This document shows positions 1,427-64,000 of a stretch of DNA of 64,000 nt, piece after piece. The DNA comes from a virus (lineage: Duplodnaviria > Heunggongvirae > Uroviricota > Caudoviricetes). Made by a program: the position numbers and the translations under genes. The notes under the pieces are model-generated. The model worked only from the letters and a program-made list of their open reading frames with translations. It made no database searches and was not told where the DNA came from. Each line of letters opens with the position of its first letter. The stretch's first letter is position 1. The stretch is from the IMG/VR virus record IMGVR_UViG_3300028840_006985; one strand, 5' to 3'.

Positions 1427-1852
1427 ATGAAAGAAATTTCAGACATTTCAGACATGATGGATGAATTAGCTCAGATAGCAGGTATTGGAAATGGAACAAG
1501 AAATAAAGAAAATGCTTCATTTGGTATATTAGATTCAATTACCAAAAACAGTAGAGACGATGATAAGCCTGCTCTTAGCGAATGTAATTCAATTGCACCT
1601 AAAAAATATATTCCACCCAAGCTTCAAGATACTCCAGTTGAAGGGTTAATTATGAAATTTGGAGGCGGTTCTACCAATGATGAATTAGGTTTAGAAAAGA
1701 CAAATAGTTCATTTGTTAAAGTAGAAGGCGTTGATGACAATCCTGCTTTTGTTAACAACATAAGTGCCATGACAGAAATGGGAAACATAGAAGCAATAAA
1801 AAGTGCAGTTTCTAACCTAGTGACTTTACTAGGTGGAAAGGTAATTTGGTAA
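1427..1852 (+). CDS. hypothetical protein with ..DELAQIAGI N-terminal motif
   Basis: 141-aa ORF in operon; start resembles LxxLAGI-type starts I recall from large-phage virion proteins. Confidence 0.6.
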   Translation: MKEISDISDMMDELAQIAGIGNGTRNKENASFGILDSITKNSRDDDKPALSECNSIAPKKYIPPKLQDTPVEGLIMKFGGGSTNDELGLEKTNSSFVKVEGVDDNPAFVNNISAMTEMGNIEAIKSAVSNLVTLLGGKVIW

Positions 1853-1853
1853 A

Positions 1854-2426
1854 ATGACTTGTAGTTCAAGACCAAAATGTCTCGATACTGAAAAAACTTT
1901 TTTTAGAGACATTATAGATGAAATAGAAGCATTAAAAGGAACTACAAGTGACGGGTCCAATTGTGCCGGATTTGGCATGGGATTAAACGAAAAATTTATC
2001 GATCTGGATGAGATGGCAGGCGTAATTATAGGAAGATATTTAATTCTTAAAATAGATCAAAGCTCAAGAAATCCTCTTTATGACGAGCCGATCAATGACG
2101 CCTACCATGAAGAGGTACAGTATGGGTTTGAATTGGAATTTTTCTATGCATTTTTAAATACTGAAGTCGATGTAGATGGAGCAGGAAAACGGACCCAGAA
2201 GGCGACTAGAATTAAAATTATTCGAGATACTTGGAATGAAAAGATGATAGAGTTGTCGTTGGTAAACACTTATCCTAAGATAGGTGACGTAGTAAAAATT
2301 AATAATAATTATTTTAACGTAGTAGATGTTGGAAAAGATAAAGACACTGGAATAACCTCTGACACTTTTAATTTAGAATTAATCAAAAGAAGTAAATTTG
2401 TTCCAGAAAGAAAACTTAACACTTAA
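1854..2426 (+). CDS. putative neck/head-completion protein (T4 gp14-like)
   Basis: NPLYDEP and YPKIGDVV motifs, 190 aa, upstream of tail genes; recalled similarity only. Confidence 0.45.
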   Translation: MTCSSRPKCLDTEKTFFRDIIDEIEALKGTTSDGSNCAGFGMGLNEKFIDLDEMAGVIIGRYLILKIDQSSRNPLYDEPINDAYHEEVQYGFELEFFYAFLNTEVDVDGAGKRTQKATRIKIIRDTWNEKMIELSLVNTYPKIGDVVKINNNYFNVVDVGKDKDTGITSDTFNLELIKRSKFVPERKLNT

Positions 2427-2436
2427 GGAAGATAAA

Positions 2437-3684
2437 ATGAACAAAAGTATTATTAATGACTTAGAAAAGATATTACAAGAAAGTAATAATGATGTTATTG
2501 TTGAAGGCATTATTAGTGATTTAATAGCTAAATTTAGAAGTCATGAGGCATTAACGGATCAACATAGAAAAATTGTTACAAAGTTTTGGAAAAAAAGAGT
2601 TATTGCTCAGATGGAAATGCTTGGAAAGCATATTGAGTCTTCGACTAGGGTAGCAAGAAAATTAAATGATCCAAAAAAGAATGAAGATTTATACCGACAA
2701 ATATTAGATATGGTATATTCATTCATGTCTGAAGCAAAGTTGCTTACATCTCTTATGAATAATTGGGAAAAAACAAAAGTACCTAAAGAAATTACTGGAG
2801 ATGAACGAGCAGATATAAAAGATGCAGCTCAAGAGGTAAATTATAAAGGCGAAAAAGAACCAGAAAAAGAACCAGAAAAAGAACCAGAAAAAGAACCAGA
2901 AAAAGAACCAGAAAAAGAACCAGAAAAAGAACCAGAAAAAGAACAAAAATCAACATGGCAAAAAGCAAAAGAGACAGCAGCTGAACAAGTTAAAAAAATA
3001 CAAAAAGCAATAGAGCAACTTAAGAAAGATAAAGAAGAAAGAATAAAAAAGGAAAAAGAAATTAGAGAAAGAGTAAAAAAGGCAACACAAGAAATAATAA
3101 AACAGAAAAAGGAGAAAGGAAAAAAAGTAGTAAAACAAAAGAAAGAACCTGTTGATGCATTAAGGATGATTGGTAAGGAAAAAAGAGAGAAAGATCTTCT
3201 TGATTTGATAAACAGAGATAAGGAAAGAAAAAGAGCAGAATTAGAAAAGAAAAGGGAAGATGAACAAAAAAGAGCACGAGAAAAGATTAGAAGAATAGAA
3301 AAAGAAAAACAAGAAAGAAAAGATAGAGAGGAAGAAGAGAAAAAAAGACGACAAAAGGCAGAAAAAGATTTTCTTGATTTTTTAGATAAAGAAAGAAAAA
3401 AAGAACAGGAAGAAGAAAAAGAAAGAAAAAATAAGGAAATAAGAAGAAAAAAAGAAAGAGAAGAATTTTATAAATCTTTTAAGAAAAATGAAAAAGAAAG
3501 AGAAAAAATACAAAAGAAAGTAGCAAAAGATATAGACGATTTGTATAAAATATACAAAGAGACGACTAAAGGAAAAAAGATAGATCGTAGACATAAAAGA
3601 AGAGTGCCTCCACAAGAACGAAAGGCTCATTTAGCTAAACTGATAGCTGCCAGGAAAGAAGATCGCAAAAGGAGAACAAAATGA
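2437..3684 (+). CDS. EKEP-repeat, highly charged coiled-coil protein (paralog of 311..835)
   Basis: ATG 2437 follows AAGGAAG; shared N-domain, (EKEP)n linker, long K/E/R-rich tail. Confidence 0.75.
   Translation: MNKSIINDLEKILQESNNDVIVEGIISDLIAKFRSHEALTDQHRKIVTKFWKKRVIAQMEMLGKHIESSTRVARKLNDPKKNEDLYRQILDMVYSFMSEAKLLTSLMNNWEKTKVPKEITGDERADIKDAAQEVNYKGEKEPEKEPEKEPEKEPEKEPEKEPEKEPEKEQKSTWQKAKETAAEQVKKIQKAIEQLKKDKEERIKKEKEIRERVKKATQEIIKQKKEKGKKVVKQKKEPVDALRMIGKEKREKDLLDLINRDKERKRAELEKKREDEQKRAREKIRRIEKEKQERKDREEEEKKRRQKAEKDFLDFLDKERKKEQEEEKERKNKEIRRKKEREEFYKSFKKNEKEREKIQKKVAKDIDDLYKIYKETTKGKKIDRRHKRRVPPQERKAHLAKLIAARKEDRKRRTK
2851..2945 (+). repeat. 12-bp tandem repeat GAAAAAGAACCA, ~8 copies (EKEP)
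   Basis: Read directly: 7 perfect units plus GAAAAAGAACA. Confidence 0.95.
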
Positions 3685-4031
3685 GTATTCTATTAGAGAT
3701 GAAACAGATAGTAAGACAGTTTTTAGGCGAAGAAGAAGAGGAAGGAAAAGAAGATACTAATATTGATAAAGATGGAAATAGAATTGATCCTAAACCTGTT
3801 CTTAAAAAGGAAAAAGACAAAGAAGAACCGCAAAAAGACGAAAAAGACAAAGAAAAGCCTAAAAAAGTTTCTCAAGAAGATGCTAACTATATAGAAATAT
3901 CCACTGATCCAGATAAAATATGTAGTTTATGTATTAAATTTGTAACACCTTCTTCGTGTCATAAAGTAGAAGGTGAGGTTAGTCCGGACGGGCTTTGCAG
4001 GTTTTTTGAAAAAAAGACAAATAACGAGTAA
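3681..4031 (+). CDS. acidic-leader protein with C-terminal HiPIP-like 4-Cys domain
   Basis: ANY....DPDKICSLCIKFV....CHKVEGEVSPDGLCRFF fits the HiPIP pattern CxxC..F..C..V.G.I...G.C..aromatic. Confidence 0.6.
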   Translation: MSILLEMKQIVRQFLGEEEEEGKEDTNIDKDGNRIDPKPVLKKEKDKEEPQKDEKDKEKPKKVSQEDANYIEISTDPDKICSLCIKFVTPSSCHKVEGEVSPDGLCRFFEKKTNNE

Positions 4032-4035
4032 GAAA

Positions 4036-5388
4036 ATGAACATATTTCAAATAAATTATTGGTTATTGGAACAAATTAATTTACTAATTGAAGCTACGCC
4101 GGAACAGTTAAAACAAAAATATCCTAAATATGCTTCTATTATAGAGAAATTGCAAAAACATAAAGTTCATATTGGTAAATTTTTTCCTTATGTTCTTAAA
4201 AAAATTGAAAAAGGAGAAAATAAAGATTTAATTGTAGAATTAATTATTAAGTTTAGTAATTTTAGCAGTAGAGGTAAATTTAAAAAAGCATTCAAATCAG
4301 ATTTGATATCAAAAAAAGAATTTGATATTTTATATTGGACTAAAAAAGAAGTTAAAGAGTTTAAAGATTTTATAGAAGGTTTTGAAAAATATGAATTAAA
4401 GTCGCTTAAAGAGAAAAAAGCGCGTCATAAACAAGCTGATTTAATCGGTAAGGTAAAAAGATTTTCAATATATATGCCTCAAGATTCTAAATCTTGTAGA
4501 ACGATTGCGCCAGATACTAAATGGTGTATAGCCAGAAAAAAGAGAGGACAAAAATATTTTGATGATACTATAGAAAAAGGTGAAATTCCTTTTTTTATAA
4601 TTGATGAATTTTCAGATACTCGTACAAATGATATGGCTAAAGTAGGTTTTTCATACAATATAAATTATTATAGTGGTCATAAATATTTTAATGCAAAAGA
4701 TGTTTCTCTTTCTCAATCAGATTTAATAAAATATTATGGTGAATTATGGAATAAAATAGAATTAATAATAAGTGAAAAAGTATCAAAAGTTAAAGGAACT
4801 GTACAAAAAAGAATAGAACGTATAAAAAAAGAAAAGGAAGAAAGAAGAAAAAAAATAGAAAGTACACGTGAAGAAAATGAAGCACTTGCAGGTGATGTGG
4901 TAATAGTAGCAGACTATGCTGATGAAGAAATTGCGGATACTGGAGTAAGCAATTTGCTTCATAGCATGGAACAAGAAGGTGAACTTGATTCAACCTTAAG
5001 CGATCGTGATTATAATCATATTGCTAGTGAAGTAATATACAAAGTAACTCAATTAATAGGTAACTTGGTAGGCACTATAACTGAGCCATTAAGATGTATG
5101 CTGCATGAAATAGATTATTATGATCTTGAAATAGATTGGAATATAGATGAATTAAGACCGGAAGAATATTTAGACAAGGAACCTCCCAAAGAACCTAAAA
5201 ATCCTAGTAAGGACGAAAAAAAGCAATATAAAAAAGATAAAGAAATTTATGATATATCTGATTATATTATTAACAATATAATAGAACAAGGACCTGACAT
5301 TGCAGGTTTTTATATTCATCCTCAACATTTAAAAATTATTGACAAAGTAACTTACGATGAGGCATTAGAATTCCATGGAGGAGAATAA
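4036..5388 (+). CDS. PcfJ-like domain protein, paralog 1 of 3
   Basis: ATG 4036 just after upstream stop; IYMP...CRTI...TKWCIA...FFIIDE motif shared with 56535 and 60943. Confidence 0.65.
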   Translation: MNIFQINYWLLEQINLLIEATPEQLKQKYPKYASIIEKLQKHKVHIGKFFPYVLKKIEKGENKDLIVELIIKFSNFSSRGKFKKAFKSDLISKKEFDILYWTKKEVKEFKDFIEGFEKYELKSLKEKKARHKQADLIGKVKRFSIYMPQDSKSCRTIAPDTKWCIARKKRGQKYFDDTIEKGEIPFFIIDEFSDTRTNDMAKVGFSYNINYYSGHKYFNAKDVSLSQSDLIKYYGELWNKIELIISEKVSKVKGTVQKRIERIKKEKEERRKKIESTREENEALAGDVVIVADYADEEIADTGVSNLLHSMEQEGELDSTLSDRDYNHIASEVIYKVTQLIGNLVGTITEPLRCMLHEIDYYDLEIDWNIDELRPEEYLDKEPPKEPKNPSKDEKKQYKKDKEIYDISDYIINNIIEQGPDIAGFYIHPQHLKIIDKVTYDEALEFHGGE

Positions 5389-5391
5389 TAC

Positions 5392-6370: not shown

Positions 6371-6375
6371 AATAA

Positions 6376-8543: not shown

Positions 8544-8563
8544 GGTTTGATCCTTTTGTATTT

Positions 8564-8884: not shown

Positions 8885-8908
8885 AGGTTACCATATTTAA
8901 ATGTGCGT

Positions 8909-9967: not shown

Positions 9968-9970
9968 ATA

Positions 9971-12887: not shown

Positions 12888-15434
12888 ATGGCTTCTTATT
12901 CAAGTGCTGGAATTTATGTAGAAGAAAAAAGTGCAGGGCCAGGCGCAATTGGTCCTGTTTCTACAGCAAATATGGCCACGGTTGGATTTACCCCACGTGG
13001 GCCAGAAAATGAGGCTACATTAGTTACTAGTTTAGAAGAATATTTCCGGGTTTTCGGTAACCATTGGAATGAATCCTTAATTAGTTTCGGAGTAACAGCA
13101 TTTTTTAAAAACGGTGGAACTAGCGCATACATTGTTAGGGTAACCCCCAGCGACGCAGTTGCGTCTAGTTGCGGACATAATACCTCTGCAACAGCCGCAG
13201 AGGAAACATGCAGGTTACATTCTACTGCTACTGATGGAATAACTAATCTGGGTGCTAGCAATTATAATATTGCTGTATCAATTGATAATAGTGATCCTAA
13301 AGAAATAGATGTTACTGGAGATTTAGGCGCCTCTAGTCCTTATACTCTTTCTGATTTAGTATCTACTATTAATACAGAATGGAATAAGGCACAATTTCTT
13401 GGCGCTGCTGTAACAGATCCTATTCTTACCCTTGATGGAACCCATTATAATATCAATCTGGACATTGACGGCGGTGGAGCCGCCGATATTGATGTTACTG
13501 GCGATAATGGTGTAGCCGGCACTTATGCCTTATCGGCAATTGCAGGAAATATTAACACTGCAGTTGGATCGACTGTTTGTTATGTAACAGGAACTAAACT
13601 TCTCTTTAAAGCTGGAACCAGTATTGTTTTTGCTGCTCCATCCGCAAATGATTGTACTAATTTGCTTACTGGGCTTGACGAAGGAGCTTATCCTCACAGT
13701 TATGCAAGCAATACAGACACTATTTGTTCTATAGATACTGATGTTTCTTTTCAAGGAAGATTAGTTTTTACATCACCAACCACGGGATTAACTTCAGAGG
13801 TTGAATTTTCTGCACCGACAGTTAATGATTGTACTGAACTTTTACTTGGACTTGACGAAGCATCCTATCCTCATACTTACAAAGGTACGGACTTAAAAGA
13901 ATATTGGGACGTTGTCGCAAGCAGCAAAGGCGTATGGGGTGATGGTCTTCGTGCTGAAATCGAACCTAACGAGAATTATTTTGATGCTACAACTGGAGCT
14001 TATACCAAGTTTGATTATATTGTTTATGAAAAGGACTCAAGTGGTACTTATGTGGAAGAGGAAAGGTATGAATCAGTATCTATCTCTGATAATACTGACG
14101 CAAGGTATTTGCCAAGTGTAGTAAATGATGAATCGTCATTAATAGAATTAACTGTCGACACTGACGGTCCGGCCATTATGGAAGCTTTAGCTCCTATAAG
14201 TAAAAGTTTGTTTAGTATTGGTTATGGTACAGGTGCGTTAGCAGCTTTTACTGCTACATTGTCAGTTCCTACTGGTTATGAAGTTTTACCAGGATCACTA
14301 ACTGTCCATATTGACGGAGGGGCATCATTAGGTGCTGACACTGACGCTGGTGACGGAACTGGAACTATTGATGGAGGCACTATTGATAATACAGCTTCCA
14401 CTATAAATTATACAACTGGGGCTGTTACAGTAACTTTTGACGGTGGCAGCGAACCAGCAGCTGACGCAAATGTTCAAATCACATATATTCTAACTCCAAA
14501 TGGGACGGTTTATTGTGATTTGGCAAGTGGTTCAGATGGAACAACTAGTCTTATTACAAGAACTACCACGACTGCACCTGCGTTAGAGGCTACCAAGTCT
14601 GGAATGTATGCCTTAAACGATGTTGAAGACTCTTTTCAGTTAGCCATTCCGGATTTTTGCTACGATCCAACATCGTTGGACGATCAAATTAGTTATGCAG
14701 AAGGCCGAGAAGATGTATTTGTAATCGGATCGGTCCCAGAAAATAATTCAGCCACTAATGCGGCAAAATGGAATCGACAAACTTTAAATAAAAACACTAG
14801 TTATCTTGCTATTTATAGTCCGTGGATTAAAATTGCTGATCCTTTAAATGAAGGTCGAGCTAAGTTAATGCCTAGCTGTGGTCACGTAGCAGGGGTTTAT
14901 GCTAGGACAGATAATAATGTCAACGTTGGAAAAGCCCCAGCGGGTATTACTGATGGAGCTTTAAATTATTGTATTGGTCTCGAGTCACGGTTCAGCAAAG
15001 GTGAACGAGATGTATTATATCAAGCCCGCGTTAATCCATTGGTAGATTCTCCTTATACGGGACGAGCTGTATGGGGCGCCCGGACGGTATCATTAGATTC
15101 TGAATGGAGATATATTCAGGCTCGACGATTATTTATTTTCTGCAAGAAATCAACTTTTAATGATACTCATTGGGCAGTATTTGAAAATAATGATGAATTA
15201 CTTTGGTCTCGTATTAAATTACAACTTACAGGTTTCTTAAGTAATTTATATAATGACGGTTATTTTAAAGGAGCAACTCCATCAGAGGCTTTTGAAGTAA
15301 TTGTTGATTCAAGCAATAATACTCAGGCTCAAATTGATGCAGGTCTTGTAACAGTAGATGTTGGAATTGCACCTAATAAGCCAGGGGAATTTGTAAGATT
15401 TAGATTTAGCCAAAAAACAGCAAATGCAGTTTAA
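12888..15434 (+). CDS. tail sheath protein with inserted domains
   Basis: YSSAGIYVEE, VGFTPRGP, YSPWI, GHVAGVYARTD, KAPAG, VWGART, WRYIQARRL, PGEFVRFRFSQ. Confidence 0.95.
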   Translation: MASYSSAGIYVEEKSAGPGAIGPVSTANMATVGFTPRGPENEATLVTSLEEYFRVFGNHWNESLISFGVTAFFKNGGTSAYIVRVTPSDAVASSCGHNTSATAAEETCRLHSTATDGITNLGASNYNIAVSIDNSDPKEIDVTGDLGASSPYTLSDLVSTINTEWNKAQFLGAAVTDPILTLDGTHYNINLDIDGGGAADIDVTGDNGVAGTYALSAIAGNINTAVGSTVCYVTGTKLLFKAGTSIVFAAPSANDCTNLLTGLDEGAYPHSYASNTDTICSIDTDVSFQGRLVFTSPTTGLTSEVEFSAPTVNDCTELLLGLDEASYPHTYKGTDLKEYWDVVASSKGVWGDGLRAEIEPNENYFDATTGAYTKFDYIVYEKDSSGTYVEEERYESVSISDNTDARYLPSVVNDESSLIELTVDTDGPAIMEALAPISKSLFSIGYGTGALAAFTATLSVPTGYEVLPGSLTVHIDGGASLGADTDAGDGTGTIDGGTIDNTASTINYTTGAVTVTFDGGSEPAADANVQITYILTPNGTVYCDLASGSDGTTSLITRTTTTAPALEATKSGMYALNDVEDSFQLAIPDFCYDPTSLDDQISYAEGREDVFVIGSVPENNSATNAAKWNRQTLNKNTSYLAIYSPWIKIADPLNEGRAKLMPSCGHVAGVYARTDNNVNVGKAPAGITDGALNYCIGLESRFSKGERDVLYQARVNPLVDSPYTGRAVWGARTVSLDSEWRYIQARRLFIFCKKSTFNDTHWAVFENNDELLWSRIKLQLTGFLSNLYNDGYFKGATPSEAFEVIVDSSNNTQAQIDAGLVTVDVGIAPNKPGEFVRFRFSQKTANAV

Positions 15435-15553: not shown

Positions 15554-16063
15554 ATGGCACGAGAAATGGCAAAAGACTATTTACAGTCTATGAAGTATCA
15601 TATTGTTGGTGTTCCTACTAATGGTAATACTTTTCCGATAACTTCAGCAGGATTTAGCGCAGTCACTATTCCTGAAATGACGGCTGAAGTTGCAGAATAC
15701 AGGGAAGGATTAACTAAATTTACAATCAAACAAGGCGGTATTCCGGCAGTTTCAGACGTTACCCTTTCGAAGGGTGTGGTAAAGGGTGAATCAGATTTTT
15801 GTAAATGGATGCTTGATTTTATAAGTGGTAACGAATATAGATACGATTTTACAATTCATCATTTACACAGAGATGATTTTGCAGAAGAAACACCTTTTGG
15901 AACTGTAAAGTATGAAATTAAAAATGCTATTCCTATTCGAGTAAAACCAGGAGGCGATCTAGATGCATCTACATCTGATATTAGTATTCGAGAAATGGAT
16001 ATTGCTTGCGAATGGTTTGATATAGAAAATACTTCAGCAGCTGATTACAAATTTGCTCCATAA
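15554..16063 (+). CDS. tail tube protein (T4 gp19 family)
   Basis: AGFSAVTIPEMTAEVAEYREG, VTLSKGV, GGDLDASTSDISIREMDI; GGAGG RBS. Confidence 0.92.
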   Translation: MAREMAKDYLQSMKYHIVGVPTNGNTFPITSAGFSAVTIPEMTAEVAEYREGLTKFTIKQGGIPAVSDVTLSKGVVKGESDFCKWMLDFISGNEYRYDFTIHHLHRDDFAEETPFGTVKYEIKNAIPIRVKPGGDLDASTSDISIREMDIACEWFDIENTSAADYKFAP

Positions 16064-16066
16064 TTA

Positions 16067-16111
16067 ATTAATGGCAAGACATTCCGCACTTGATATTTTA
16101 CCAGCGTTCAG
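16067..16111 (+). repeat. 45-bp direct repeat copy 1 (duplicated 5' end of tube gene 2; 17-codon stub 16071..16124)
   Basis: Matches 16839..16883 with one synonymous mismatch (TCC/TCT). Confidence 0.9.
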
Positions 16112-16162
16112 GTTGATACAGTAATCATTTCCTATATTTCTTCCGCGAGTAGGATTTAATTA

Positions 16163-16819
16163 ATGAATATTAGAAAAATAAATTATTGGTTATTAAAAAA
16201 AATCAACTTATTAAACGAAGATAGTGCATTACCTCCTGAATTTCAAGGATTCGGATTTGATATTGACGATGAACTGGTTAAATCATGGGATGATGATTTG
16301 GTTAAAAAATATGGATTACCTCGCTCGATTGATCCTTCTCAAGTTATAAAAAAGAAAATTAGCGGCATTAATTATATAAAATATTATGAAAAAAAGAAAG
16401 AGGCTACTATTGTAGACGCTGTTTGGGCATTTAGAGCGCCAGTATCTTCTGAGGAACAAGCAAAAAAAATAGGTATTAGAGCACAAAAAGCCTTAAAAGG
16501 AATAAGAACCTTACCTTCTACAATTCCTACTCTTCATACTAGAGCACTTTATGTTGGATGGAACGATGAAGATTCAATAAGTTTAGTAAAATTACCACCA
16601 ATAAAACAATCTAAAGAATATTTTGCATTTGAAAAGGATATGTCTAAAAAGGATGCGCTCAATTATCTGTTAAAAAAAAGAAAGATAAAAAAATCCATGA
16701 TAAATGCATTACAAATAAGCGAACTAGAATTTGAATGGCTAGACAGTTTATCCAACAAGGAGTATAATCAAAATATAGATAAATATATTGAAATGTATAC
16801 AAGAAAGTGGAAATATTAA
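16163..16819 (+). CDS. hypothetical protein with MNI..INYWLL..I.LL.E leader (inserted gene)
   Basis: Leader nearly identical to that of 4036..5388; lies between 45-bp direct repeats. Confidence 0.7.
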   Translation: MNIRKINYWLLKKINLLNEDSALPPEFQGFGFDIDDELVKSWDDDLVKKYGLPRSIDPSQVIKKKISGINYIKYYEKKKEATIVDAVWAFRAPVSSEEQAKKIGIRAQKALKGIRTLPSTIPTLHTRALYVGWNDEDSISLVKLPPIKQSKEYFAFEKDMSKKDALNYLLKKRKIKKSMINALQISELEFEWLDSLSNKEYNQNIDKYIEMYTRKWKY

Positions 16820-16838
16820 CTATATTTTATAACATGTG

Positions 16839-16883
16839 ATTAATGGCAAGACATTCTGCACTTGATATTTTACCAGCGTTCAG
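16839..16883 (+). repeat. 45-bp direct repeat copy 2
   Basis: Covers the start of the intact 16843 gene. Confidence 0.9.
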
Positions 16884-17505
16884 ATTTCATCTTGTTGACG
16901 TAGCAACAACGATTGCATTTCCTGTATTTCTTCCACAAGCAGGGTTTAGTGAGATTACAGCTCCAGAAATAACTGCAGATATAGAAGAAATAAAAGAAGG
17001 CAATGCAATAGTCAAACGAAAGGTGATTACTGGCGCTTCCATGTCAACAATGACGTTGTCTAGGGGTGTTACATTCTTTGACAGCGATTTTTGGAGATGG
17101 TTTAGTAATGCTATATTAGGTCCTGAGCCGTCTTTACTTTCTCACCGTGTTAGAAGAAACCTAATGCTTTTACAATTTATGCATATTGGTGCAAGCACAA
17201 CAGCAGGAATAGCCATATCGGCTGGAGCTACGGCTTTTCTTGGTGGAGTAGCCGGCGGAGCCGGCGGTATTGCTGCCTTAGGAATTGCGGCTGGGGCGGT
17301 AACGTTAGCAGGTGGTATGTGGAGAGTGCCGGCCAAGGCGTGGATGCTTTGGAATTGTTTACCGTCAAGATGGAAGTCAGGGACAGATTTTAGCGCTAAT
17401 GACACAGCGGTATCTATTGCTGAGCTAGATATTGAGCCAGAATTAGTTGAAGAGTATTCCCTTACAACAACATTAGGCAGTTTGGCCGGTGGAGTATTAG
17501 GATAA
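16843..17505 (+). CDS. second gp19-like tail tube protein with Gly/Ala-rich hydrophobic insert
   Basis: AGFSEITAPEIT..I.EIKEGN, MTLSRGV, W.SGTDFSANDTAVSIAELDI. Confidence 0.85.
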   Translation: MARHSALDILPAFRFHLVDVATTIAFPVFLPQAGFSEITAPEITADIEEIKEGNAIVKRKVITGASMSTMTLSRGVTFFDSDFWRWFSNAILGPEPSLLSHRVRRNLMLLQFMHIGASTTAGIAISAGATAFLGGVAGGAGGIAALGIAAGAVTLAGGMWRVPAKAWMLWNCLPSRWKSGTDFSANDTAVSIAELDIEPELVEEYSLTTTLGSLAGGVLG

Positions 17506-17547: not shown

Positions 17548-18453
17548 ATGTGGGAAGGATTTGAATTACAAAATGGCAACATTGAATGGAAGTATTATGA
17601 ATTATTTTCTTCAGGGATCAAGAAATATTTACGTTATAAATTTGGAATAAGTAATAAAAATTGGTATGTTATTGAATTTGATGAAGATGGTGAATATATA
17701 AAAGATGATATGGGCAGTGCTAAAAATATAGATGATTCTTTTAAGAAGGCTACTCAATTTTTAAAAAAACTTTCTAAGAAAATAAAACCACCAAACAAAA
17801 ATGAATATAAAAAAATACGTACCCCAGAAGAAAAAGCTAAATTTATAGCAAAAATTCGTACTCAGCAGAAATTCGAGTTACCAGAGGAAGGATATTATCC
17901 AGAGGTATTATTACCTCCTGATAATAATGAAAAAGGCGAAGAAGTTTATAACGGTATTGCTCATTATGAATCATCTAATACTCATAGATTTGTTTACTAT
18001 GTAGATGGTGAGGCTGCATCTGGATTAATGCTTAAAATTATAATTGCTAGAAAAAGTGCAACAATAGATAGAGTATATACTAAACCTAAACATAGAAGAA
18101 AAGGTTATGCTAAAAAGTTATTCAAATATGCAAAAGAGATTTATCATAAAATATATCATTCAATAGACTTAACGGGTGTTGGTGAAAAATGGAAACGCAA
18201 CGTGGGTGAAATATTTACAATAGGAAAAGAGATGGCATTAATTGACGAATTAAAAAAAATAGCTGAAACAATTACAACGGCAAATGTGCCGGGAGTAATT
18301 GCTCCAATGGTAACTATTAAGCGAATGCCAATCTTAGAGCCATTGGAAATTACTAAGGAAAAAATAGATAAAGTTAAGAAAAGAAAAAAATATCATCATA
18401 CTGCTGAATTTATTGATATTGAAGATTTATTAGATGGTTGTAATTGTGATTAG
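17548..18453 (+). CDS. GNAT acetyltransferase-domain protein (possibly fused to a 73-aa gene starting at 18232)
   Basis: IDRVYTKPKHRRKGYAKKL acetyl-CoA motif A; internal AGGAAAAGAG-ATG MALIDELKKIAE. Confidence 0.7.
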   Translation: MWEGFELQNGNIEWKYYELFSSGIKKYLRYKFGISNKNWYVIEFDEDGEYIKDDMGSAKNIDDSFKKATQFLKKLSKKIKPPNKNEYKKIRTPEEKAKFIAKIRTQQKFELPEEGYYPEVLLPPDNNEKGEEVYNGIAHYESSNTHRFVYYVDGEAASGLMLKIIIARKSATIDRVYTKPKHRRKGYAKKLFKYAKEIYHKIYHSIDLTGVGEKWKRNVGEIFTIGKEMALIDELKKIAETITTANVPGVIAPMVTIKRMPILEPLEITKEKIDKVKKRKKYHHTAEFIDIEDLLDGCNCD

Positions 18454-39143: not shown

Positions 39144-39596
39144 ATGAAAGTTTTTTTTAAAGCCGAGTGTGTTGTTAACATAGAGACTACATTAGATTTT
39201 GATGATACTTATTATAATAGAATAATGATGAAGTATGCTTGTTTACAAAATTATTACGAGAGCATGTTTCGGAATAGTTACGACAGTAACCATAGTGATT
39301 TGGTTAAAATGATTAATGAAAAAGTACATAATGGGGGTCTATCTCTTAACAAAGTTGGCAGAGTTCAAAAAATAGAATTAATAGAATCAGAGGATGAGTT
39401 TAAAAACTTAAAAGTGGGTGAATGGTTTAAGTTGTTGCCAGATCAGGCAGGATATGATTATATTGCAGATCACAATTCAGTGTTTATGAAAATTGATGTT
39501 TGTGGAAACATAAATACGACAGTAGTTAAAGGTGAAGATGTTGGAAAATTTCGTTATTTTAATCCCAATATAGTCGTGATAAGGATTAGAGAATAA
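39144..39596 (+). CDS. tandem paralog family X, member 1
   Basis: MK.FFK...NIET.L; F.NLK.GE.F.L; FMK; V.GE.VG. Confidence 0.7.
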   Translation: MKVFFKAECVVNIETTLDFDDTYYNRIMMKYACLQNYYESMFRNSYDSNHSDLVKMINEKVHNGGLSLNKVGRVQKIELIESEDEFKNLKVGEWFKLLPDQAGYDYIADHNSVFMKIDVCGNINTTVVKGEDVGKFRYFNPNIVVIRIRE

Positions 39597-39620
39597 TAAA
39601 AAAATCAAGGAAGAAAAACA

Positions 39621-39755
39621 ATGATAGAAGGATATAAGTTTTTTTTAAAAGATTACAAAGCAAAGTACGGTGATTTTCAGTTTAAGGTAGGAGAACGATA
39701 TAAACATGATGGTCCAGTAATGATGCAAATCGAGATGTTCGGAACAGGGCGGTAG
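39621..39755 (+). pseudogene. 5' stub of LRV-repeat gene (copy C)
   Basis: First 33 codons and upstream AAAATCAAGGAAGAAAA nearly identical to copy B, then unrelated sequence and TAG. Confidence 0.85.
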
Positions 39756-39786
39756 ACGTTTTAAGACTAAGATTAAAGGAAGAAAA

Positions 39787-40227
39787 ATGAAGAAGATTTT
39801 TTTCAAAGGCAAAGGCAGAGTAATTATCAATATGGAGACCTTGTTAGAGATCTCCGATCCTGATTTTCAGAGGGCAACATTTAAACATGGTGGTTTACAG
39901 GATTATTTCAATGAAAGGCGTGATGAATTGCTTTCATTGATTAATGAAAAGAGGTGGGAACTAGCGTCAGACGATAGAGTTATGGAAATTGTTTCAATAG
40001 ATTTATTAGAGGAGGTGGATGTATTTATCAATTTAAAAATAGGTGAACGGTTTAGGCAATTTTCACAATTAGGTGTTATTGATGAATCAATATTTATGAG
40101 AACCATTAACGAGTATTGTGGCACTACTGGTAAGGTAACATTGAGGGCAGTAAAGATTGAGGGTGGTGAGGGTGTTGGAAATATTATTTCTTTAGGGGAT
40201 GATTGTCTCGTAATAAGGATCGACTAA
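39787..40227 (+). CDS. tandem paralog family X, member 2
   Basis: MKKIFFKG..INMETLL; FINLKIGERF; AVKIEGGEGVG. Confidence 0.7.
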   Translation: MKKIFFKGKGRVIINMETLLEISDPDFQRATFKHGGLQDYFNERRDELLSLINEKRWELASDDRVMEIVSIDLLEEVDVFINLKIGERFRQFSQLGVIDESIFMRTINEYCGTTGKVTLRAVKIEGGEGVGNIISLGDDCLVIRID

Positions 40228-40240
40228 GAGAGGATAAACA

Positions 40241-40414
40241 ATGTCAAGAGATATTAAATGGGATCATGGTTACCTTAGAGAATATGAAAGATCTGATGAG
40301 GATTTTAACGGAAAGAGCCTTAAACAGGCAGTGTTAGATCTTCAGAAGCAAATTTGCGATTTAGAGAGAGTGATTGATTTTATAAAAAAGAAGGGAGAAG
40401 GGGAGAATGGGTGA
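40241..40414 (+). CDS. small hypothetical protein (57 aa)
   Basis: AGAGGA RBS, overlaps next start; below the ORF-track cutoff. Confidence 0.4.
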   Translation: MSRDIKWDHGYLREYERSDEDFNGKSLKQAVLDLQKQICDLERVIDFIKKKGEGENG

Positions 40415-40862
40415 GGTAAGGAAGATTTTTTTTAAAGGTAAATGTAAAATAGCTGCCAATATAGAAACTGTATTAGAATGGTCAAAGGATGAATTTGATG
40501 AGATATTGGCAGAATATGGACATCTGAAGGATTTTTTCACAAGTAATTATAACTTGTTATCTGAAATGATTAACGAGCAAAGTTGTAAAGGAGAATTATC
40601 GATTAGTCAAATTGGCGTGGGTAAGCAGTCTGTCGAGGATATCTCAATAGAGTCATTAGGGGTGATGTATATTTTTGATGATTTAAAACAAGGTGAACGA
40701 TTTAAACTCTTACCAGATAATGGAAAATCGGTTTTTGTCAAGACTGAAGAGAAATGTGATAAGTATGGGCGGGTAACAATAAATGCAGTGGCAGTTGAAG
40801 GAAGAAATGTCGGATGTTTATATTGTTTTGATTTCAATCGGAATGTGGAAAAGGTGAAATAA
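40407..40862 (+). CDS. tandem paralog family X, member 3
   Basis: KIFFKG..ANIETVL; FDDLKQGERFKL; NAVAVEGRNVG. Confidence 0.7.
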   Translation: MGEVRKIFFKGKCKIAANIETVLEWSKDEFDEILAEYGHLKDFFTSNYNLLSEMINEQSCKGELSISQIGVGKQSVEDISIESLGVMYIFDDLKQGERFKLLPDNGKSVFVKTEEKCDKYGRVTINAVAVEGRNVGCLYCFDFNRNVEKVK

Positions 40863-41261
40863 ATGAAAAAAGTTTTTCTTGAATGTAGATGTGTTTTAAA
40901 AATAAAGAGTGTATTGGATGTGCCTGATAATTATGTAAACAATAACGATGAAGTGGTTAGAATAATTAAGGGAGAAATATCTGGAGGAGGCATTAGGGTT
41001 CATGGTGATCTTATAGAGAATGTTCAAATAGATTTACTTGAAGTTGGAAATGTATTTTACAATTTGAAGACAGGTAGTCAGTTTAAGTTAGCACCAGATA
41101 GTTTGGGGTATAGTGAACATTCAATATTTGTTAAGATTGATAAACATAGTAATAGCAATGATGAAGAATTCAATGCGGTAAGGGTTAAAGGCATTGAAAA
41201 TGTTGGAAAATTGTGTTATTTTATTCCCATGCAACCTGTAGTAAAAATTAATAATTCTTAA
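40863..41261 (+). CDS. tandem paralog family X, member 4
   Basis: MKKVFLEC; FYNLKTGSQFKL; NAVRVKGIENVG. Confidence 0.7.
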   Translation: MKKVFLECRCVLKIKSVLDVPDNYVNNNDEVVRIIKGEISGGGIRVHGDLIENVQIDLLEVGNVFYNLKTGSQFKLAPDSLGYSEHSIFVKIDKHSNSNDEEFNAVRVKGIENVGKLCYFIPMQPVVKINNS

Positions 41262-42540: not shown

Positions 42541-42594
42541 CTAAAAAACAAATATCCAAGCAATCTAGTTGATTTTCTTATTATTTTATGTTAT
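42541..42594 (+). repeat. ~54-bp direct repeat copy 1 containing promoter TTGATT-17-TATTCC
   Basis: 38-bp identical core AAAAACAAATATCCAAGCAATCTAGTTGATTTTCTTAT shared with 43221..43258. Confidence 0.9.
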
Positions 42595-42619
42595 TCCTTA
42601 TTAAGAAGAGGGAGAAAAA

Positions 42620-43207
42620 ATGAGTTTTATATCTGATTTGAGACAGATTTGTGAAGTAAAAAGTAGTGAATTATTTCATACTACTTCATTTGAGGGTTTA
42701 TTGGGTATATTAAAAGATAAAAAGCTTAAATCTAGAAATATTAATAATTCGTTTATATCTTTTTCTGAAGTTCCATATCTGGGTGATATAAGTGGTAATG
42801 ATATAGTTTTGGTGTTTAATCGAAATAAATTAAGAAATCAATTAATCAAAGTTGAATATACAAAGAAATGGTATGAACAATATACAGATCAAGCGGCTTA
42901 TATTGCTGGTGAAGGTTGGTTAGCCCAATTTGATATAGATGATTGGATTGATTCAGATGATATTGATATTGAGACAGGGGAAGTTGATTCAGATGTAGAA
43001 AATGAAGTTTATGCACAGGCTGAGATGCAGGCTTTTTTAGATAAGAGTAGCGAAAAGGAATGGATAACAAGGCAAGAGATGCAGCCGGTTAGCTTTGATT
43101 ATGATGATATTTACGTTATTCTGGTGCCTGATAGGACAAAAATTGATATGGTTAAGAGCTGGTTAGATGATTTGGGAATTAATATTAAAATAAAATCATT
43201 AAGATAG
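42620..43207 (+). CDS. putative ADP-ribosyltransferase-fold protein with ISDLRQICE leader
   Basis: LFHTT..GL.GIL....LKS, FISFSE, late EKEW (ExE-like). Confidence 0.55.
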   Translation: MSFISDLRQICEVKSSELFHTTSFEGLLGILKDKKLKSRNINNSFISFSEVPYLGDISGNDIVLVFNRNKLRNQLIKVEYTKKWYEQYTDQAAYIAGEGWLAQFDIDDWIDSDDIDIETGEVDSDVENEVYAQAEMQAFLDKSSEKEWITRQEMQPVSFDYDDIYVILVPDRTKIDMVKSWLDDLGINIKIKSLR

Positions 43208-43218: not shown

Positions 43219-43271
43219 CTAAAAACAAATATCCAAGCAATCTAGTTGATTTTCTTATCATTTTATGCTAT
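43219..43271 (+). repeat. ~54-bp direct repeat copy 2 containing promoter TTGATT-17-TATCGT
   Basis: See copy 1; lies upstream of the gp25 gene. Confidence 0.9.
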
Positions 43272-43319
43272 CGTCTATTAGAATGTGTGTAAAAATCTAA
43301 ATATTTTAAGGGTTTCTCA

Positions 43320-56534: not shown

Positions 56535-57752
56535 ATGAATATATTACAGGCAAATAGATTATTTAAATCTTATCTTATTGAAGTTAACGTAAAACAATTA
56601 AAAATAAATAATCCGGAATATGTGGATTTTTTAGATAATTTACAAAAGTGGTCAATAGCTATACCTAATAAGTATTTTCAATGGGCATTAATTAAGAAGA
56701 AAAAAGAAAATATTGATATTAAAGAAGTAGTTGAGTTAATATTTAGATTTGAAAAATATGGTACTGATGGCTTAATGAAAGCCTCAATAGTTGGGCTAAT
56801 TGATAAAAAAGAAGTTAATATTGACTATTGGAACAAAAAGACTGTAAAAGATTTTAAGGAATTTCTTGACAGATTAGATTCATATAATGTTGATTTTAAT
56901 TCTTTAAGAACGAAGAAGTTTGAACGTAGGGTTTATAATGATGCTGACTTAGTGTATGAAGATGAACGAGTTATTATATGGCGGCCATTAGAATTTGATT
57001 CGTCATGTAAAATAGGCCAATCAAGATGGTGCGTAGCTGTTCCGGACAGAAGTGATTATAGAGATAGATCTATTGAAGGTGAGATTTTCTTTTATGTTAT
57101 TGATAAATTTATAAATCCAAATAACAATTCTCTTGCTTTTTCTGTTGTTATATTTAGCAAAGAAATTGATAAAATTAATGAATTATGGGATTATGATAAC
57201 GATCTTAGAGATGATAAGGAATATTTAAAGTATTATGGGCCTCAATTATGGAAAAAGATAATCAGTAAGATAAACGGATATGGAATAACTGCTGACATAC
57301 GTATTGATAGAGAGGAAGATGAAATATGGTATGGGGATGAGGTGTTATATGATGGCGATCCTCAAAAATTTATTGATGATTATTTTGTGGGCTACAATTT
57401 TACTTATTACGATTGGTCTGTATATAAAGATTTTATGCATGAATTTATTTCTAAATTATCAGGAGAGGTTACAGATCCGCTAGTTGCATCTTTTTCAGAT
57501 GATATTGAAGTAACCTGGATAGCTGATAATAAAGTAAAACTTGATTTTGATGATTATTATAATAATTTAGTTAATGGATTAAATAAAGACAGTAAAGAAT
57601 ACAAAGAGGTTACTGACTTGTATCATATGATATTGGATGAGCCTTTAAAATATATCATTGATGGTGAATTTGTTACAGAAGATATCGAGGCTAAAAATCT
57701 ATCTATAACAAGAAAAAATGATCCTAATAATGCTATTGGTTTTCAATTTTGA
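56535..57752 (+). CDS. PcfJ-like domain protein, paralog 2 of 3
   Basis: IWRP...SCKIG.SRWCVA, FFYVIDK; leader MNI...YLIE. Confidence 0.65.
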   Translation: MNILQANRLFKSYLIEVNVKQLKINNPEYVDFLDNLQKWSIAIPNKYFQWALIKKKKENIDIKEVVELIFRFEKYGTDGLMKASIVGLIDKKEVNIDYWNKKTVKDFKEFLDRLDSYNVDFNSLRTKKFERRVYNDADLVYEDERVIIWRPLEFDSSCKIGQSRWCVAVPDRSDYRDRSIEGEIFFYVIDKFINPNNNSLAFSVVIFSKEIDKINELWDYDNDLRDDKEYLKYYGPQLWKKIISKINGYGITADIRIDREEDEIWYGDEVLYDGDPQKFIDDYFVGYNFTYYDWSVYKDFMHEFISKLSGEVTDPLVASFSDDIEVTWIADNKVKLDFDDYYNNLVNGLNKDSKEYKEVTDLYHMILDEPLKYIIDGEFVTEDIEAKNLSITRKNDPNNAIGFQF

Positions 57753-57783
57753 GGTATAATTAATATAATGCGAATTGTTGTAA

Positions 57784-60912: not shown

Positions 60913-60942
60913 ATCTATTAATAACATATTAAGGTAATTTTA

Positions 60943-62145
60943 ATGAAAATCATTAATTATAATACGCAATTAAAAGAACTTTATTTTATTTTAACTGAAG
61001 TTAGTGTTAGACAGTTAAAAAAGCAAAATCCAGAATTAGAAATCTTTATTGATAAGTTAATTAGATTAGGATTGGATAATAAATATTTACAGTGGGCTGT
61101 TTTTCAAGTAAAAAATAAAAAAAATCATTGGAGATTTAAACCTTATGATAGCATTGCATTAAATCTGGTAGAGTATGCAAAAAGGTTTGATGTTTTTGCA
61201 AAATCGGGCAAGCTTAAAAAAGCTGTTGAGATGAATTTAATTAATCAAGCGCAAACAGATATTCAATATTGGCATAGGAAAAATATGTCTGAATTTGAAA
61301 TATTTATTAATAATATGGATTCATATGATTTAAAATCACGTAAGGAAGTTAAAATTAGCGGATCTATTCGTTTATATGAAGACGATAATGTTTTTGTTTA
61401 TGGCATTAAAAATCATAAGGCTGCAACTATTCTTGGAAGAAATACGCATTGGTGTATAACAGAAGATGATGGGGAATGGTGGGATAAATATGTTAATCAT
61501 CATGGATATGGTTTTGCATTTATTATTGATAAAAATGGGAATTCTAGAAAAAATAAGTTAGCAAAGATTGCTGTTCAGTATGATCTTGTTTTGGGAAAAG
61601 TTGAGAATTACTGGGACAGTGAAGATGAGATTGTTTCTAAGTCTGAAGTTGGTAAATATTATAAAAATTTTAGTAGAATCTTAAGCAAAATAGAATCATA
61701 CATGTCTATGTTGGAGCCAAAACTTAAAAAATATTATGAAGATGAGATATGGTATGGTGATATAGTATCTATGGACGGCGAGATAATTAAAGATAAAGCT
61801 ATTGAATGGGCTAATGGTGATTCGGAAATACAAGATTTGTTGGAACAATTTTATTTTAGAATTTCAGGAGTTGTTACATCTCCAATGATTACTGATCTGG
61901 ATGAGGATCTAAATCAGAAAATTATTATTTATTGGAACTTTGATGTTGATCGGTTTTGGACTTATGATTCAAAAGAATACAATGAAGAAGTTATAGAAAA
62001 ATTTGAAGATATTATATCTGAAATAGAGGATGATCTAGATGAAGAATCGTCAGAGTTAAATCTTAGTGATATTAGAGTAATATTTGACACAGATGATTTT
62101 GAAGAATTGATAAATACTTTTAGGGGAAGAAACTCGAGAAAATAA
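60943..62145 (+). CDS. PcfJ-like domain protein, paralog 3 of 3
   Basis: VYGI...ATILG.NTHWCIT, FAFIIDK..NKLAK; leader ending ILTE. Confidence 0.65.
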   Translation: MKIINYNTQLKELYFILTEVSVRQLKKQNPELEIFIDKLIRLGLDNKYLQWAVFQVKNKKNHWRFKPYDSIALNLVEYAKRFDVFAKSGKLKKAVEMNLINQAQTDIQYWHRKNMSEFEIFINNMDSYDLKSRKEVKISGSIRLYEDDNVFVYGIKNHKAATILGRNTHWCITEDDGEWWDKYVNHHGYGFAFIIDKNGNSRKNKLAKIAVQYDLVLGKVENYWDSEDEIVSKSEVGKYYKNFSRILSKIESYMSMLEPKLKKYYEDEIWYGDIVSMDGEIIKDKAIEWANGDSEIQDLLEQFYFRISGVVTSPMITDLDEDLNQKIIIYWNFDVDRFWTYDSKEYNEEVIEKFEDIISEIEDDLDEESSELNLSDIRVIFDTDDFEELINTFRGRNSRK

Positions 62146-62156
62146 TAACGAATGAG

Positions 62157-63302
62157 TTGAAATTATTTATTATGAGTTTATTTTTTTATAGTGGATCTAA
62201 AATAGGAATTGAGAAAAAGACACTTTCTAGTGGTGATGGGATAGTTTCACCTTTTTTACAACAAGTTCAAGCTGTTAACTATGATAGAATAAGATTTACA
62301 TTTAATAGAGAGATGAATTTTGGTGGGTTTATTGGTGGAGATCTGGTTGATATTTTAAATCCTGCCTATTTTATAGTTAAAGAACAGTTAACATCTAATA
62401 ATGTTAATATAGTTCGTGTTTATAAAAGAAGTGATACAGAAGTTGAAGCTATTTGTGAGAATTTATTAAATCTTCAGTATACTGCTGAAGTATCATCAGA
62501 CATAGAAGATATTTATGGTGTTAAAATAGGTAGTAATAATACGGCGACATTTACAGGATTGGTACCAACTTTTCCAGAGATTAATAATTTATATGGATTT
62601 TTTGGATTACAGACAGGGATACAACTGGTTGATATTCCTGGAATTGCTCCTGATGCGGAAGGGCCGATTGTATCCAATAAAGATCCCGATTCTGGTGATA
62701 CGGTTCATATAATACATAGAGTTTCGTTTGACATTACAGATGAAAACGGTGTAAATGCTGACAGTATTGTGGTTAGGATAAACGATAATGTTGCTTGGCA
62801 AAACAACACAGAGCAGGATGGTTTTACAGTAACAAAAACGACAATAATTGATGGTTATCATTTCGACATAGATAGCAATGAGCCATTTCCATCTTATTCG
62901 GCAATACCAGTAAGAATTCAGGCGTCGGATCTGTGGCCTATTCCTAATTCTTCTGATACTCAGTGGTCATTTAATACTGGCGCAAGGGGGCCATATGCCA
63001 TCTATCAATATCCGTCGCCGGACGGGACGGGGACTTCCAATTCTTTAATTACGGTAAAAGTGATTGCTGATTCAACGTTAAGAAAGGAATCAGTGAAAAT
63101 TTGGGTCAAACCTGGAGATGATGAAAGATATGAATTAGCGTTTGAATTTGATGCGGATCCTAAATTTACGACTTTATATAACGGTGTTGAAAGCATATGG
63201 GAGCCGATTGAAAAGGGAATAAAAGTTATTCTTGATCGAACGGAAGAGTACAAAGTAGGTGAAGATATTGATATAATTATACATGCGGCAGAGACAGCTT
63301 AA
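62157..63302 (+). CDS. Ig-like domain virion protein
   Basis: RIRFTFNREM, YTAEVS.DIED..G, GPIVSNKDPDSG, WSFNT; start uncertain. Confidence 0.7.
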   Translation: MKLFIMSLFFYSGSKIGIEKKTLSSGDGIVSPFLQQVQAVNYDRIRFTFNREMNFGGFIGGDLVDILNPAYFIVKEQLTSNNVNIVRVYKRSDTEVEAICENLLNLQYTAEVSSDIEDIYGVKIGSNNTATFTGLVPTFPEINNLYGFFGLQTGIQLVDIPGIAPDAEGPIVSNKDPDSGDTVHIIHRVSFDITDENGVNADSIVVRINDNVAWQNNTEQDGFTVTKTTIIDGYHFDIDSNEPFPSYSAIPVRIQASDLWPIPNSSDTQWSFNTGARGPYAIYQYPSPDGTGTSNSLITVKVIADSTLRKESVKIWVKPGDDERYELAFEFDADPKFTTLYNGVESIWEPIEKGIKVILDRTEEYKVGEDIDIIIHAAETA

Positions 63303-63375
63303 TGAATATTAGGATTTTAAATAATAAAGTCTTTTTTATTTTAAAACTGTATAATTTATATGTGGAATTTATAAA

Positions 63376-64000
63376 ATGCTTATAAGTGATTTGAAAAAAA
63401 TTAGCGAATCAGACGGTAAATATCAGATGCCAGACGAAGAGCATATTGACAAAATGCGTAAAGGATGGGAAAAACTATTATTTCAGTATAAATCAATTAG
63501 AAGTTATAATGACGCTGTATTATATCTTAACAATATGGAAGCATATATAGATAGATTGACGGAAGATGTTTTGATAAATTTTGGATTTTGGACAGCAGAT
63601 ATAAAAAAAGAGGAAACAATTGTTCAAAAACGGCTAAAACAAGCTAAAGATATAGTTAATAATGGTCAAAAATATGTTTATTATACGCCAAGAACAAATG
63701 ATGTTGATTGGAAAGAAGTAGTACTAGAACAGGTTGTACGAAAAATAGGTCCATATATGGGAAGTCCCGGCTTGAGATCTTTTGACATATTTAATATTCT
63801 TAAGAAGAATATTTCTGAAATTCAAAAAAGGTATAAAACAGGTATATCTGATTTTTCAATAGGAAAAATGAAAATAACATGGTGGCCAAGTATAGGTAGA
63901 GATTTGCATACCATAAAAGGTAAAATAATTTCTACATATAAAAACCCGGAATTTTATCGTGATTACGGTGTCAGAGAGATCCTTAGAGGGCCAGACTTAA
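63376..64000 (+). CDS. hypothetical protein with MLISDLKKISE leader (runs off window)
   Basis: ATG 63376, open to window end. Confidence 0.6.
   Translation, partial: MLISDLKKISESDGKYQMPDEEHIDKMRKGWEKLLFQYKSIRSYNDAVLYLNNMEAYIDRLTEDVLINFGFWTADIKKEETIVQKRLKQAKDIVNNGQKYVYYTPRTNDVDWKEVVLEQVVRKIGPYMGSPGLRSFDIFNILKKNISEIQKRYKTGISDFSIGKMKITWWPSIGRDLHTIKGKIISTYKNPEFYRDYGVREILRGPDL

Follow-up and report, generated by a model that had tools for sequence, protein, structure and literature searches.

Leaders ending in Leu/Ile-x-Glu on accessory proteins of an uncultured T4-like phage: a candidate capsid-targeting system

Introduction

In phage T4, L/I-x-E marks the sites after which the prohead protease gp21 cuts, and the propeptides that it removes measure 7 to 65 residues (PMC9026906). 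In the T4 internal proteins, propeptides of 10-19 residues serve as capsid targeting sequences (PMC9026906, PMC3012670); those of IPII and IPIII are identical, and that of IPI is similar (PMC9026906). Alt, a packaged ADP-ribosyltransferase (ART) of T4, carries a propeptide of 7 residues (PMC9026906). Here we describe short N-terminal leaders ending in Leu/Ile-x-Glu on proteins encoded in a 64,000-nucleotide stretch of viral DNA (Caudoviricetes; IMG/VR record IMGVR_UViG_3300028840_006985), hereafter the window, and compare them with T4 capsid targeting. An earlier note on this DNA had proposed that about ten unrelated, dispersed genes share leaders of two types, behind which the phage would swap enzymatic cargo, package it and inject it into the host.

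The locus resembles the T4 system in its S77 protease and in short N-terminal leaders that end in L/I-x-E outside the fold (PMC9026906, PMC3012670). The candidate cargos are likewise diverse and fast-evolving, include an ART-fold protein, and are hosted by hypervariable loci. It differs from T4 in having several dissimilar leaders instead of one, with lengths of up to 19-20 residues; several cargo genes are single cassettes with flanking repeats in tail and fibre operons, the protease is fused to a scaffold-like region, and the system is known here from sequence and models.

The giant phages phiKZ, 201phi2-1 and SPN3US offer another comparison. Their cleavage motif, S/A/G-x-E, is unlike the L/I-x-E of T4. 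They possess paralogous head-packaged families with propeptides that are cut after Glu by gp21-related proteases (PMC9026906), to which three paralogs in the window, those of the g4036 family, may be compared. However, no sequence relation to the giant-phage proteins was found, and the genome here is T4-like, at ∼176 kb.

Results

One leader on two non-homologous proteins

Two proteins of the window begin with closely similar leaders of 19 residues. g4036 (4036..5388, plus strand; 450 aa) lies in a hypervariable slot of the head module, and its leader (residues 1-19, 4036-4092) ends in L-I-E. g16163 (16163..16819, plus strand; 218 aa; leader residues 1-19, 16163-16219) is inserted between two tube genes. 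The leaders are identical at 15 of 19 residues, and no similarity is present past them. When the N-termini of the 78 proteins examined in the window were compared all against all, this pair scored 66, with 0.1 pairs expected at 50 or above, and it was the only pair of non-paralogs far above chance. In DNA sequence the two genes resemble each other precisely from the ATG onwards, and the similarity has faded after ∼20 codons; upstream of the ATG their sequences are unrelated. The two leaders have an exact core of 19 nt in common. Among the 15 residues that are identical, 6 have different codons, and seven base changes fall in the four positions at which the leaders differ; the six synonymous differences therefore indicate selection on the leader peptide. 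A search of 5.8 billion proteins for homologs of g16163 recovered only g16163 itself.

Two further genes had been listed as looser matches to this type 1 leader: g56535 (56535..57752, plus strand; 405 aa), situated between two fibre-region genes, with leader residues 1-16 ending in L-I-E, and g60943 (60943..62145, plus strand; 400 aa), with leader residues 1-19 ending in L-T-E. Both are full-length paralogs of g4036 (25-30% identity among the three, over 345-402 aligned residues), so that these three bearers are not unrelated proteins. What stands of the type 1 claim is the pair of g4036 and g16163, a clear case of the same leader on non-homologous proteins of one phage. The paralogs were not counted towards it, and g16163 is the only type 1 bearer that shares the leader without further homology.

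A full scan of 1.8 billion cluster representatives (clusters at 50% identity) yielded 60 relatives of g4036. The leaders of this family range from ∼13 to 45 residues and lack a conserved sequence. Nevertheless, L-x-E is placed ∼5 residues ahead of a conserved LKxxYP motif in ∼25 of the 29 members that could be anchored. In a 22-sequence alignment of the family (A3), only three columns are invariant, E19 among them; L17 is >90% conserved. The AlphaFold model of g4036 (mean predicted local distance difference test score, pLDDT, 85.6) comprises a helix at residues 3-16 (pLDDT 60-74), a coil at 17-21 (L-I-E-A-T), and a fold from residue 22 onwards (pLDDT >90), which puts the site outside the folded domain in the model. 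The family carries a G-x-G-T-K-W-C-I-S motif with an invariant Cys.

g4036 had also been called PcfJ-like. The fold found no match in the PDB, and no family matched in Pfam; for PcfJ (PF14284) this covered 22 family members. The N-terminal domain is weakly PcfJ-like: several entries of the AlphaFold database (AFDB) named PcfJ-like were retrieved at E 0.02-0.1, and an Atlas cluster with 26% PcfJ ranked 46th. The label thus reduces to a weak likeness of fold.

A gp21-type protease and a conserved capsid site

The ORF (open reading frame) list and family scans indicate that the window covers the end of a head module, followed by a tail and baseplate module. Megablast of the window against phage records gave no match, nor did exact-pattern scans of viral and metagenome contigs. 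The 174-aa product of 311-835, looked up as an exact protein, led to the metagenome contig L001 (175.5 kb). L001 agrees with the window at every one of the first 2,884 bases before diverging from it in the repeat region of g2437. Upstream of the part shared with the window, L001 encodes a T4-type portal, two unassigned genes, a 512-aa Peptidase_S77 protein, a Gp23 capsid protein, and a gp13-like neck gene. The capsid and sheath proteins are ∼30-35% identical to those of any cultured phage. Because the upstream genes are of T4 type and these two proteins are so diverged, the phage is T4-like, but distantly: it is a T4-like myovirus, uncultured and deep-branching. The window shows no enrichment of the T4 late-promoter motif TATAAATA (18 matches vs 14.8 expected).

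The protease match (Peptidase_S77, gp21-type, PF03420; L001 4523-6061) has an E-value of 4.5e-14 and 52.8 bits, at a cut-off of 27. On L001 the protease gene is located 3.6 kb and the Gp23 capsid gene 2.1 kb upstream. An S77 protease is also encoded by G001, a complete relative of 177,890 bp. The capsid protein matches Gp23 at E 3.5e-66, with the Pfam match beginning at residue 73, and L62-K63-E64 is found just ahead of the part aligned with mature Gp23. L-x-E at the residue-64 column is kept in all six clade relatives, which were found via the capsid protein. An N-terminal L-x-E is also conserved in the protease and in u3697, one of the two unassigned upstream genes. These three sites agree with the published T4 gp21 rule, and judging from the sequences the protease of this lineage likely cuts after L/I-x-E. 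The S77 match spans residues 31-172 of the 512-aa protein and is fused to a ∼300-residue E/K-rich coiled coil; the whole protein contains 18 [IL]xE sites. Given the coiled coil and these sites, L001 4523-6061 looks like a protease-scaffold fusion.

Lineage-specific leader families in relatives

Relatives have a hypervariable region bounded by the homologs of g1854 and g5789. Genes within it share lineage-specific leaders and nothing else. The 228 ORFs of G001 were scanned without prior assumptions. Four adjacent genes in G001/L011, one of them the g3681 homolog, carry a leader of the type IL-x-x-GL-x-FIR ending in [IL]xE, and the top non-paralog N-terminal pairs of G001 are exactly this family (scores 42-48, with 0.43 pairs expected at 40 or above). 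One further member is encoded ∼70 kb away. In L009, four small genes start with MNLRxRGYLxE, and L007 has one leader pair with a score of 41. Hence G001, L009, and L007 each have one leader on non-homologous proteins, as the window does. In L010, one leader, MSVL-x-ELK-x-I, is common to the homolog of g3681 and to a gene of the g4036 family (score 32, ∼p 0.05).

The leaders of the window and of G001 match at chance level only, and the leaders are therefore lineage-specific. A 30-aa leader query on G001 found only itself. Two resemblances between the genomes were for the same reason not counted: that of G135065m to type 1, and that of G68778m to type 2. G68778m (G001 68778-69515; L016 8778-9515, minus strand) is a Zeta-toxin/AAA_33 P-loop kinase that starts with MDLLEELRMIAE, with the domain beginning at residue 24.

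Insertion of leader-bearing genes in late operons

G001 has no homologs of g311, g2437, g4036, g16163, g42620, g56535, g60943, or g63376. G001 does have the core genes found on either side of g42620, g56535, and g60943, and in each case the two are direct neighbors there. At the tube-gene junction G001 holds a different, unrelated 118-aa gene (G128042m), which starts with M-S-K-G-M-L-E-E, and this junction between two tube genes (window 16067-16948) looks like an insertion hot spot.

Direct repeats bracket two of the genes in the window. The g16163 cassette is flanked by a 48-nt repeat that is 96% identical (left copy 16067..16114, plus strand; right copy 16839-16886) and duplicates the start of tube gene 2, and by a second, 33-nt pair at 16126 and 16916. 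g42620 is flanked by an 88-nt repeat of 78% identity (left copy 42544..42631, plus strand; right copy 43221-43308). The absence of the genes from G001, the adjacency of their flanks there, and the direct repeats support the view, already put forward in the earlier note, that cargo genes are inserted singly in late operons. Since the flanking tail genes are intact and adjacent in G001 without them, these inserted genes are not parts of the tail machine.

A predicted ADP-ribosyltransferase behind a disordered leader

g42620 (42620..43207, plus strand; 195 aa) has a 12-residue leader (42620-42655) ending in I-C-E, and its ART fold starts at residue ∼15-17. In the model (pLDDT 84) the leader is disordered, with pLDDT <50 for residues 3-13, and structural alignments begin at about residue 15. 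Foldseek matched the model to DarT in the PDB (7omw, E 7e-6, probability 1.0) and to Tpt1 (E 2e-3), and the AFDB matches were DarT, DUF4433, and DUF2971 proteins; there was no Pfam or PHROG match. The family motifs are [HR]-T-T, F-x-S-F-x-E, and E-x-E-W, the residues of which may represent the catalytic positions. g42620 is thus predicted to adopt a DarT-like ADP-ribosyltransferase fold, in line with the ART-like cargo claimed earlier. It shares with the DarT/DUF4433/Tpt1 branch the fold match to 7omw and the H/R-T-T, S-F-S-E, and E-x-E-W motifs, but differs in lacking an antitoxin partner, in its N-terminal leader, and in TM-scores of 0.44-0.52. As in T4 Alt, an ART fold is combined with an N-terminal leader.

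Five homologs of g42620 were found, with a conserved core that starts at L-F-H-T-T. [ILV]xE occurs a few residues before the core in four of the six sequences (g42620 and the five homologs). L003, an unrelated 10-kb contig, is the locus of a leaderless homolog. Four adjacent genes on it (2047-4611), encoding a GNAT, a 152-aa protein, an ART-PolyVal, and a 178-aa protein, share a leader ending in L-I-K-E. An SNF2 helicase and an M10 peptidase are encoded nearby, and the gene set resembles polyvalent-protein domains.

In sequence terms the leader is firm for the g4036 family, g16163, and g42620.

Motif frequency and the type 2 leader

The bare motif [IL]xE is present in the first 22 residues of 26 of the 78 proteins, against 23% of internal windows, which is about chance, and at this near-background frequency it carries no weight alone. 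In G001, N-terminal [IL]xE occurs in 13 of 21 head-module genes and in 52 of 207 genes elsewhere (p 0.0014); the corresponding counts for the window together with L001 are 11/21 and 16/57 (p 0.06). Over the window proteins as a whole the motif is barely above background; it is enriched in head-module genes.

Type 2, as listed in the earlier note, comprised the leaders at 42620, 63376, 18232, 2437, 3681, and 1427. g63376 (63376..63999, plus strand) runs off the window end, and exact-protein look-ups aimed past that end returned nothing; its 11-residue leader ends in I-S-E. The gene gave no homologs and no Atlas lead, and its leader status is weak. Type 2 pairs score 27-29, within the chance range (∼25 pairs expected at 25 or above), and a mutual triangle like theirs arose in ∼5% of control sets (p ∼0.05), a borderline value. 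An extended type 2 pattern occurs at 6 places in 22,900 residues; 4 of these are N-terminal, 3 of which had defined the pattern. An independent genome gave 2 matches, 1 of them N-terminal. Type 2 is therefore not supported as a significant family. Loose type 2 forms were also seen within ∼20 residues of the C-terminus of head proteins, namely the portal of both phages and, in G001, the protease-scaffold protein and two leader-bearing proteins.

Other candidate bearers

All ten peptides listed in the earlier note are present in the window at their positions. Apart from g4036 and g42620, a leader ending in L/I-x-E is borne out by sequence for g16163, g56535, g60943, g2437, g3681, and g63376, but not for the entries at 18232 and 1427; with these failures and the paralogs taken into account, roughly six of the ten are independent bearers, fewer than the ten or so unrelated ones that had been supposed.

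g2437 (2437..3684, plus strand; 415 aa), in the hypervariable slot, is K/E-rich with EKEP repeats and carries a leader at residues 1-15 ending in L-Q-E; with the leader removed it would be very basic (mature pI 9.7). Its paralog g311 (311..835, plus strand; 55% identity over 137 aa) has L-T-D at the site of the g2437 Glu. The EKEP tract differs in length between the window (2884-3684; 415 aa) and L001 (12574-13314; 395 aa), the contig being otherwise identical. g3681 (3681..4031, plus strand; 116 aa) starts with M-S-I-L-L-E, followed by an acidic spacer and a Cys-rich C-terminal part. Its homologs keep S-[IV]-L-x-E; the copy in G001 bears the leader of G001 itself, and that in L010 shares its leader with the g4036-family gene. 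The assignment of g3681 as a high-potential iron-sulphur protein (HiPIP) was not upheld: no Pfam family matched at E 0.01 or better, and the fourth Cys is lost in the G001 homolog. g842 (854..1372, plus strand), a candidate absent from the earlier list, likely starts at the ATG at 854 according to the gene call on a variant contig. It is very basic (mature pI 10.6, from the 842 start), and its N-terminal L-T-E matches L-A-E of the G001 homolog. Leader status is plausible for g2437, g3681, and g842. g1854 (1854..2426, plus strand), a core head-module gene, has I-x-E at residues 21-23, conserved in L010 and G001.

The two failed entries are of different kinds. The claimed leader of g1427 (1427..1852, plus strand), MMDELAQIAG, begins only at residue 10 and has a final Gly in place of the Glu of the site; I-A-G is kept in the L010 homolog and is different in that of L011. 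The peptide at 18232, MALIDELKKIAE, is internal to a 301-aa GNAT acetyltransferase ORF (17548..18453, plus strand; Pfam GNAT match at aa 138-201). It begins at residue 229, at a Met preceded by AGGAAAAGAG, with no stop codon ahead. T4 Alt is cut at both ends. The GNAT ORF runs 73 residues past its domain, and this tail, which begins with the Met after AGGAAAAGAG and a leader-like peptide ending in I-A-E, could be an internal start or a processed C-terminal segment.

Other features of the window and its relatives

The tail module of the window includes the sheath (12888-15434), a gp19-type tube (15554-16063), a second, paralogous tube gene at 16843, a 1,986-aa gene of tape-measure size, a baseplate hub with a Phage_base_V domain, and a wedge subunit; large genes of the fibre region come next. 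Between the baseplate hub region and a gp25-like gene there are four paralogs in tandem (g39144, g39787, g40407, and g40863; 39144-41261), 132-151 aa in length, which are missing from G001. The portal ORF, 578 aa here, is longer in relatives: 1,906 aa in G001 (148255-153975; L020), 937 aa in L008 (3341-6154), and 915 aa in L009 (2156-4903). Portal homology in G001 falls in two distant blocks, which suggests a large insertion, e.g. an intein or an added domain.

Discussion

We favor, as a somewhat probable explanation, a capsid-targeting or propeptide system of the T4 type with several lineage-specific leaders. A subset of accessory proteins would bear an N-terminal helical leader of 6-20 residues ending in Leu/Ile-x-Glu. 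As a T4 capsid targeting sequence does, the leader would direct its protein to the scaffold core inside the prohead, and the S77 protease would then cut after the Glu. The mature protein would be retained in the head and reach the host together with the DNA, and it may act against the host there. Leaders would be specific to each lineage and swapped between cargos, and cargo genes would occupy either the hypervariable slot that follows the genes for capsid and neck or, as single cassettes, sites between conserved tail genes. The S77 protease, the conserved L-x-E of the capsid protein, the conservation of L17 and E19, the position of leaders outside the folds, and the leader families of relatives all fit the portable T4-type leader that had been proposed; the size and uniformity of the proposed set do not.

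Several observations weigh against this explanation. The phage would need at least three dissimilar leaders, and those of the window and G001 resemble each other no more than by chance. A profile (hidden Markov model) built on g4036-family leaders, none of them taken from the window, proved powerless at detection. The conservation of L17 and E19 could have a structural cause, g56535 and g60943 are found among fibre genes, and one g4036-family member is encoded in the replication gene region of another phage. Among the g42620 homologs, P0004 lacks a leader and P0005 has a leader without an [IL]xE site. The type 2 pairs are within the chance range, and the bare motif is at background outside the head module. 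Finally, there is no cultured relative, the capsid protein of the nearest isolate being ∼30% identical.

An unlikely alternative is that the leaders are genuine shared helices with another job, such as docking to tail, baseplate, or fibre, chaperone binding, or self-association, in which Leu and Glu are structural and neither proteolysis nor head packaging takes place. Conserved N-terminal anchor modules with variable C-termini are familiar from tail fibres and tailspikes, the genes g56535 and g60943 lie between fibre-region genes and g16163 between tube genes, and L17 and E19 are only ∼5 residues from the fold. However, G001 lacks these genes while its copies of the neighboring tail genes are intact and lie side by side, and the g4036 family is also present in the head module (g4036 itself and L010 gene 5729). 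The low pLDDT of the leader and the coil between leader and fold fit poorly with a docking helix, and the conserved residues are the exact gp21 consensus, in phages that encode S77. Chance combined with paralogy is less likely still. According to this explanation, [IL]xE is simply common near the N-termini of an AT-rich, I/L/K/N/E-rich proteome, type 1 is a duplicated family, and the remainder is pattern-picking. The motif count of 26/78 against 23% of internal windows, the paralogy of three of the four type 1 genes, the chance-level scores of the type 2 pairs and of window-G001 leader matches, and the outright failure of two listed members (1427 and 18232) are as it would predict. It does not account for the g4036-g16163 score, far beyond chance and with similarity confined to the leader, nor for L17 and E19 being among the best-conserved columns of a large family, the head-module enrichment (p 0.0014), or the independent leader families in G001, L009, and L007.

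The remaining two explanations are more doubtful. The leaders might be shared 5' coding segments kept at the DNA or RNA level, either as patches of homology through which cassettes are exchanged or as regions of translation initiation, and the 19-nt exact core common to g4036 and g16163 as well as the flanking repeats of the cassettes would suit this; we regard it as improbable. The six synonymous differences within 15 identical residues and the seven base changes at four changed positions speak against it, as do the unshared non-coding DNA upstream and the g4036-family members that keep L-x-E while their leader DNA diverges freely. Least credible of all is a recognition tag for a modifying enzyme, similar to the leaders of ribosomally synthesized and post-translationally modified peptides (RiPPs). 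An unusual GNAT is encoded nearby, at 17548, but no such enzyme was found among the window genes scanned, and the version of this idea involving a radical-SAM enzyme was rejected: radical-SAM genes are absent from G001, although that phage encodes an S77 protease and a leader family of its own.

As a tentative extension, the g4036 family, which counts at least 60 cluster representatives (50% identity) in metagenomes and keeps L-x-E almost universally, may represent a widespread and undescribed class of head-packaged, injected proteins. Tagged cargo might then spread as single cassettes into any late operon by way of short flanking duplications, with several coexisting leader dialects in one phage that a single protease-scaffold fusion would recognize. 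Because the principle was already known from T4 in the 1990s, the gain would be in breadth and in a catalogue of cargo and not in a new mechanism. Should the leaders work as they do in T4, they would mark accessory proteins that are delivered into the host with the DNA, and the delivered set would include a DarT-like ADP-ribosyltransferase, a PcfJ-like family, and basic, DNA-binding-like proteins. Proteins delivered in this way would be prime candidates for host take-over and counter-defence, and the leader would provide a simple sequence handle for finding cargo of this kind in metagenomes.

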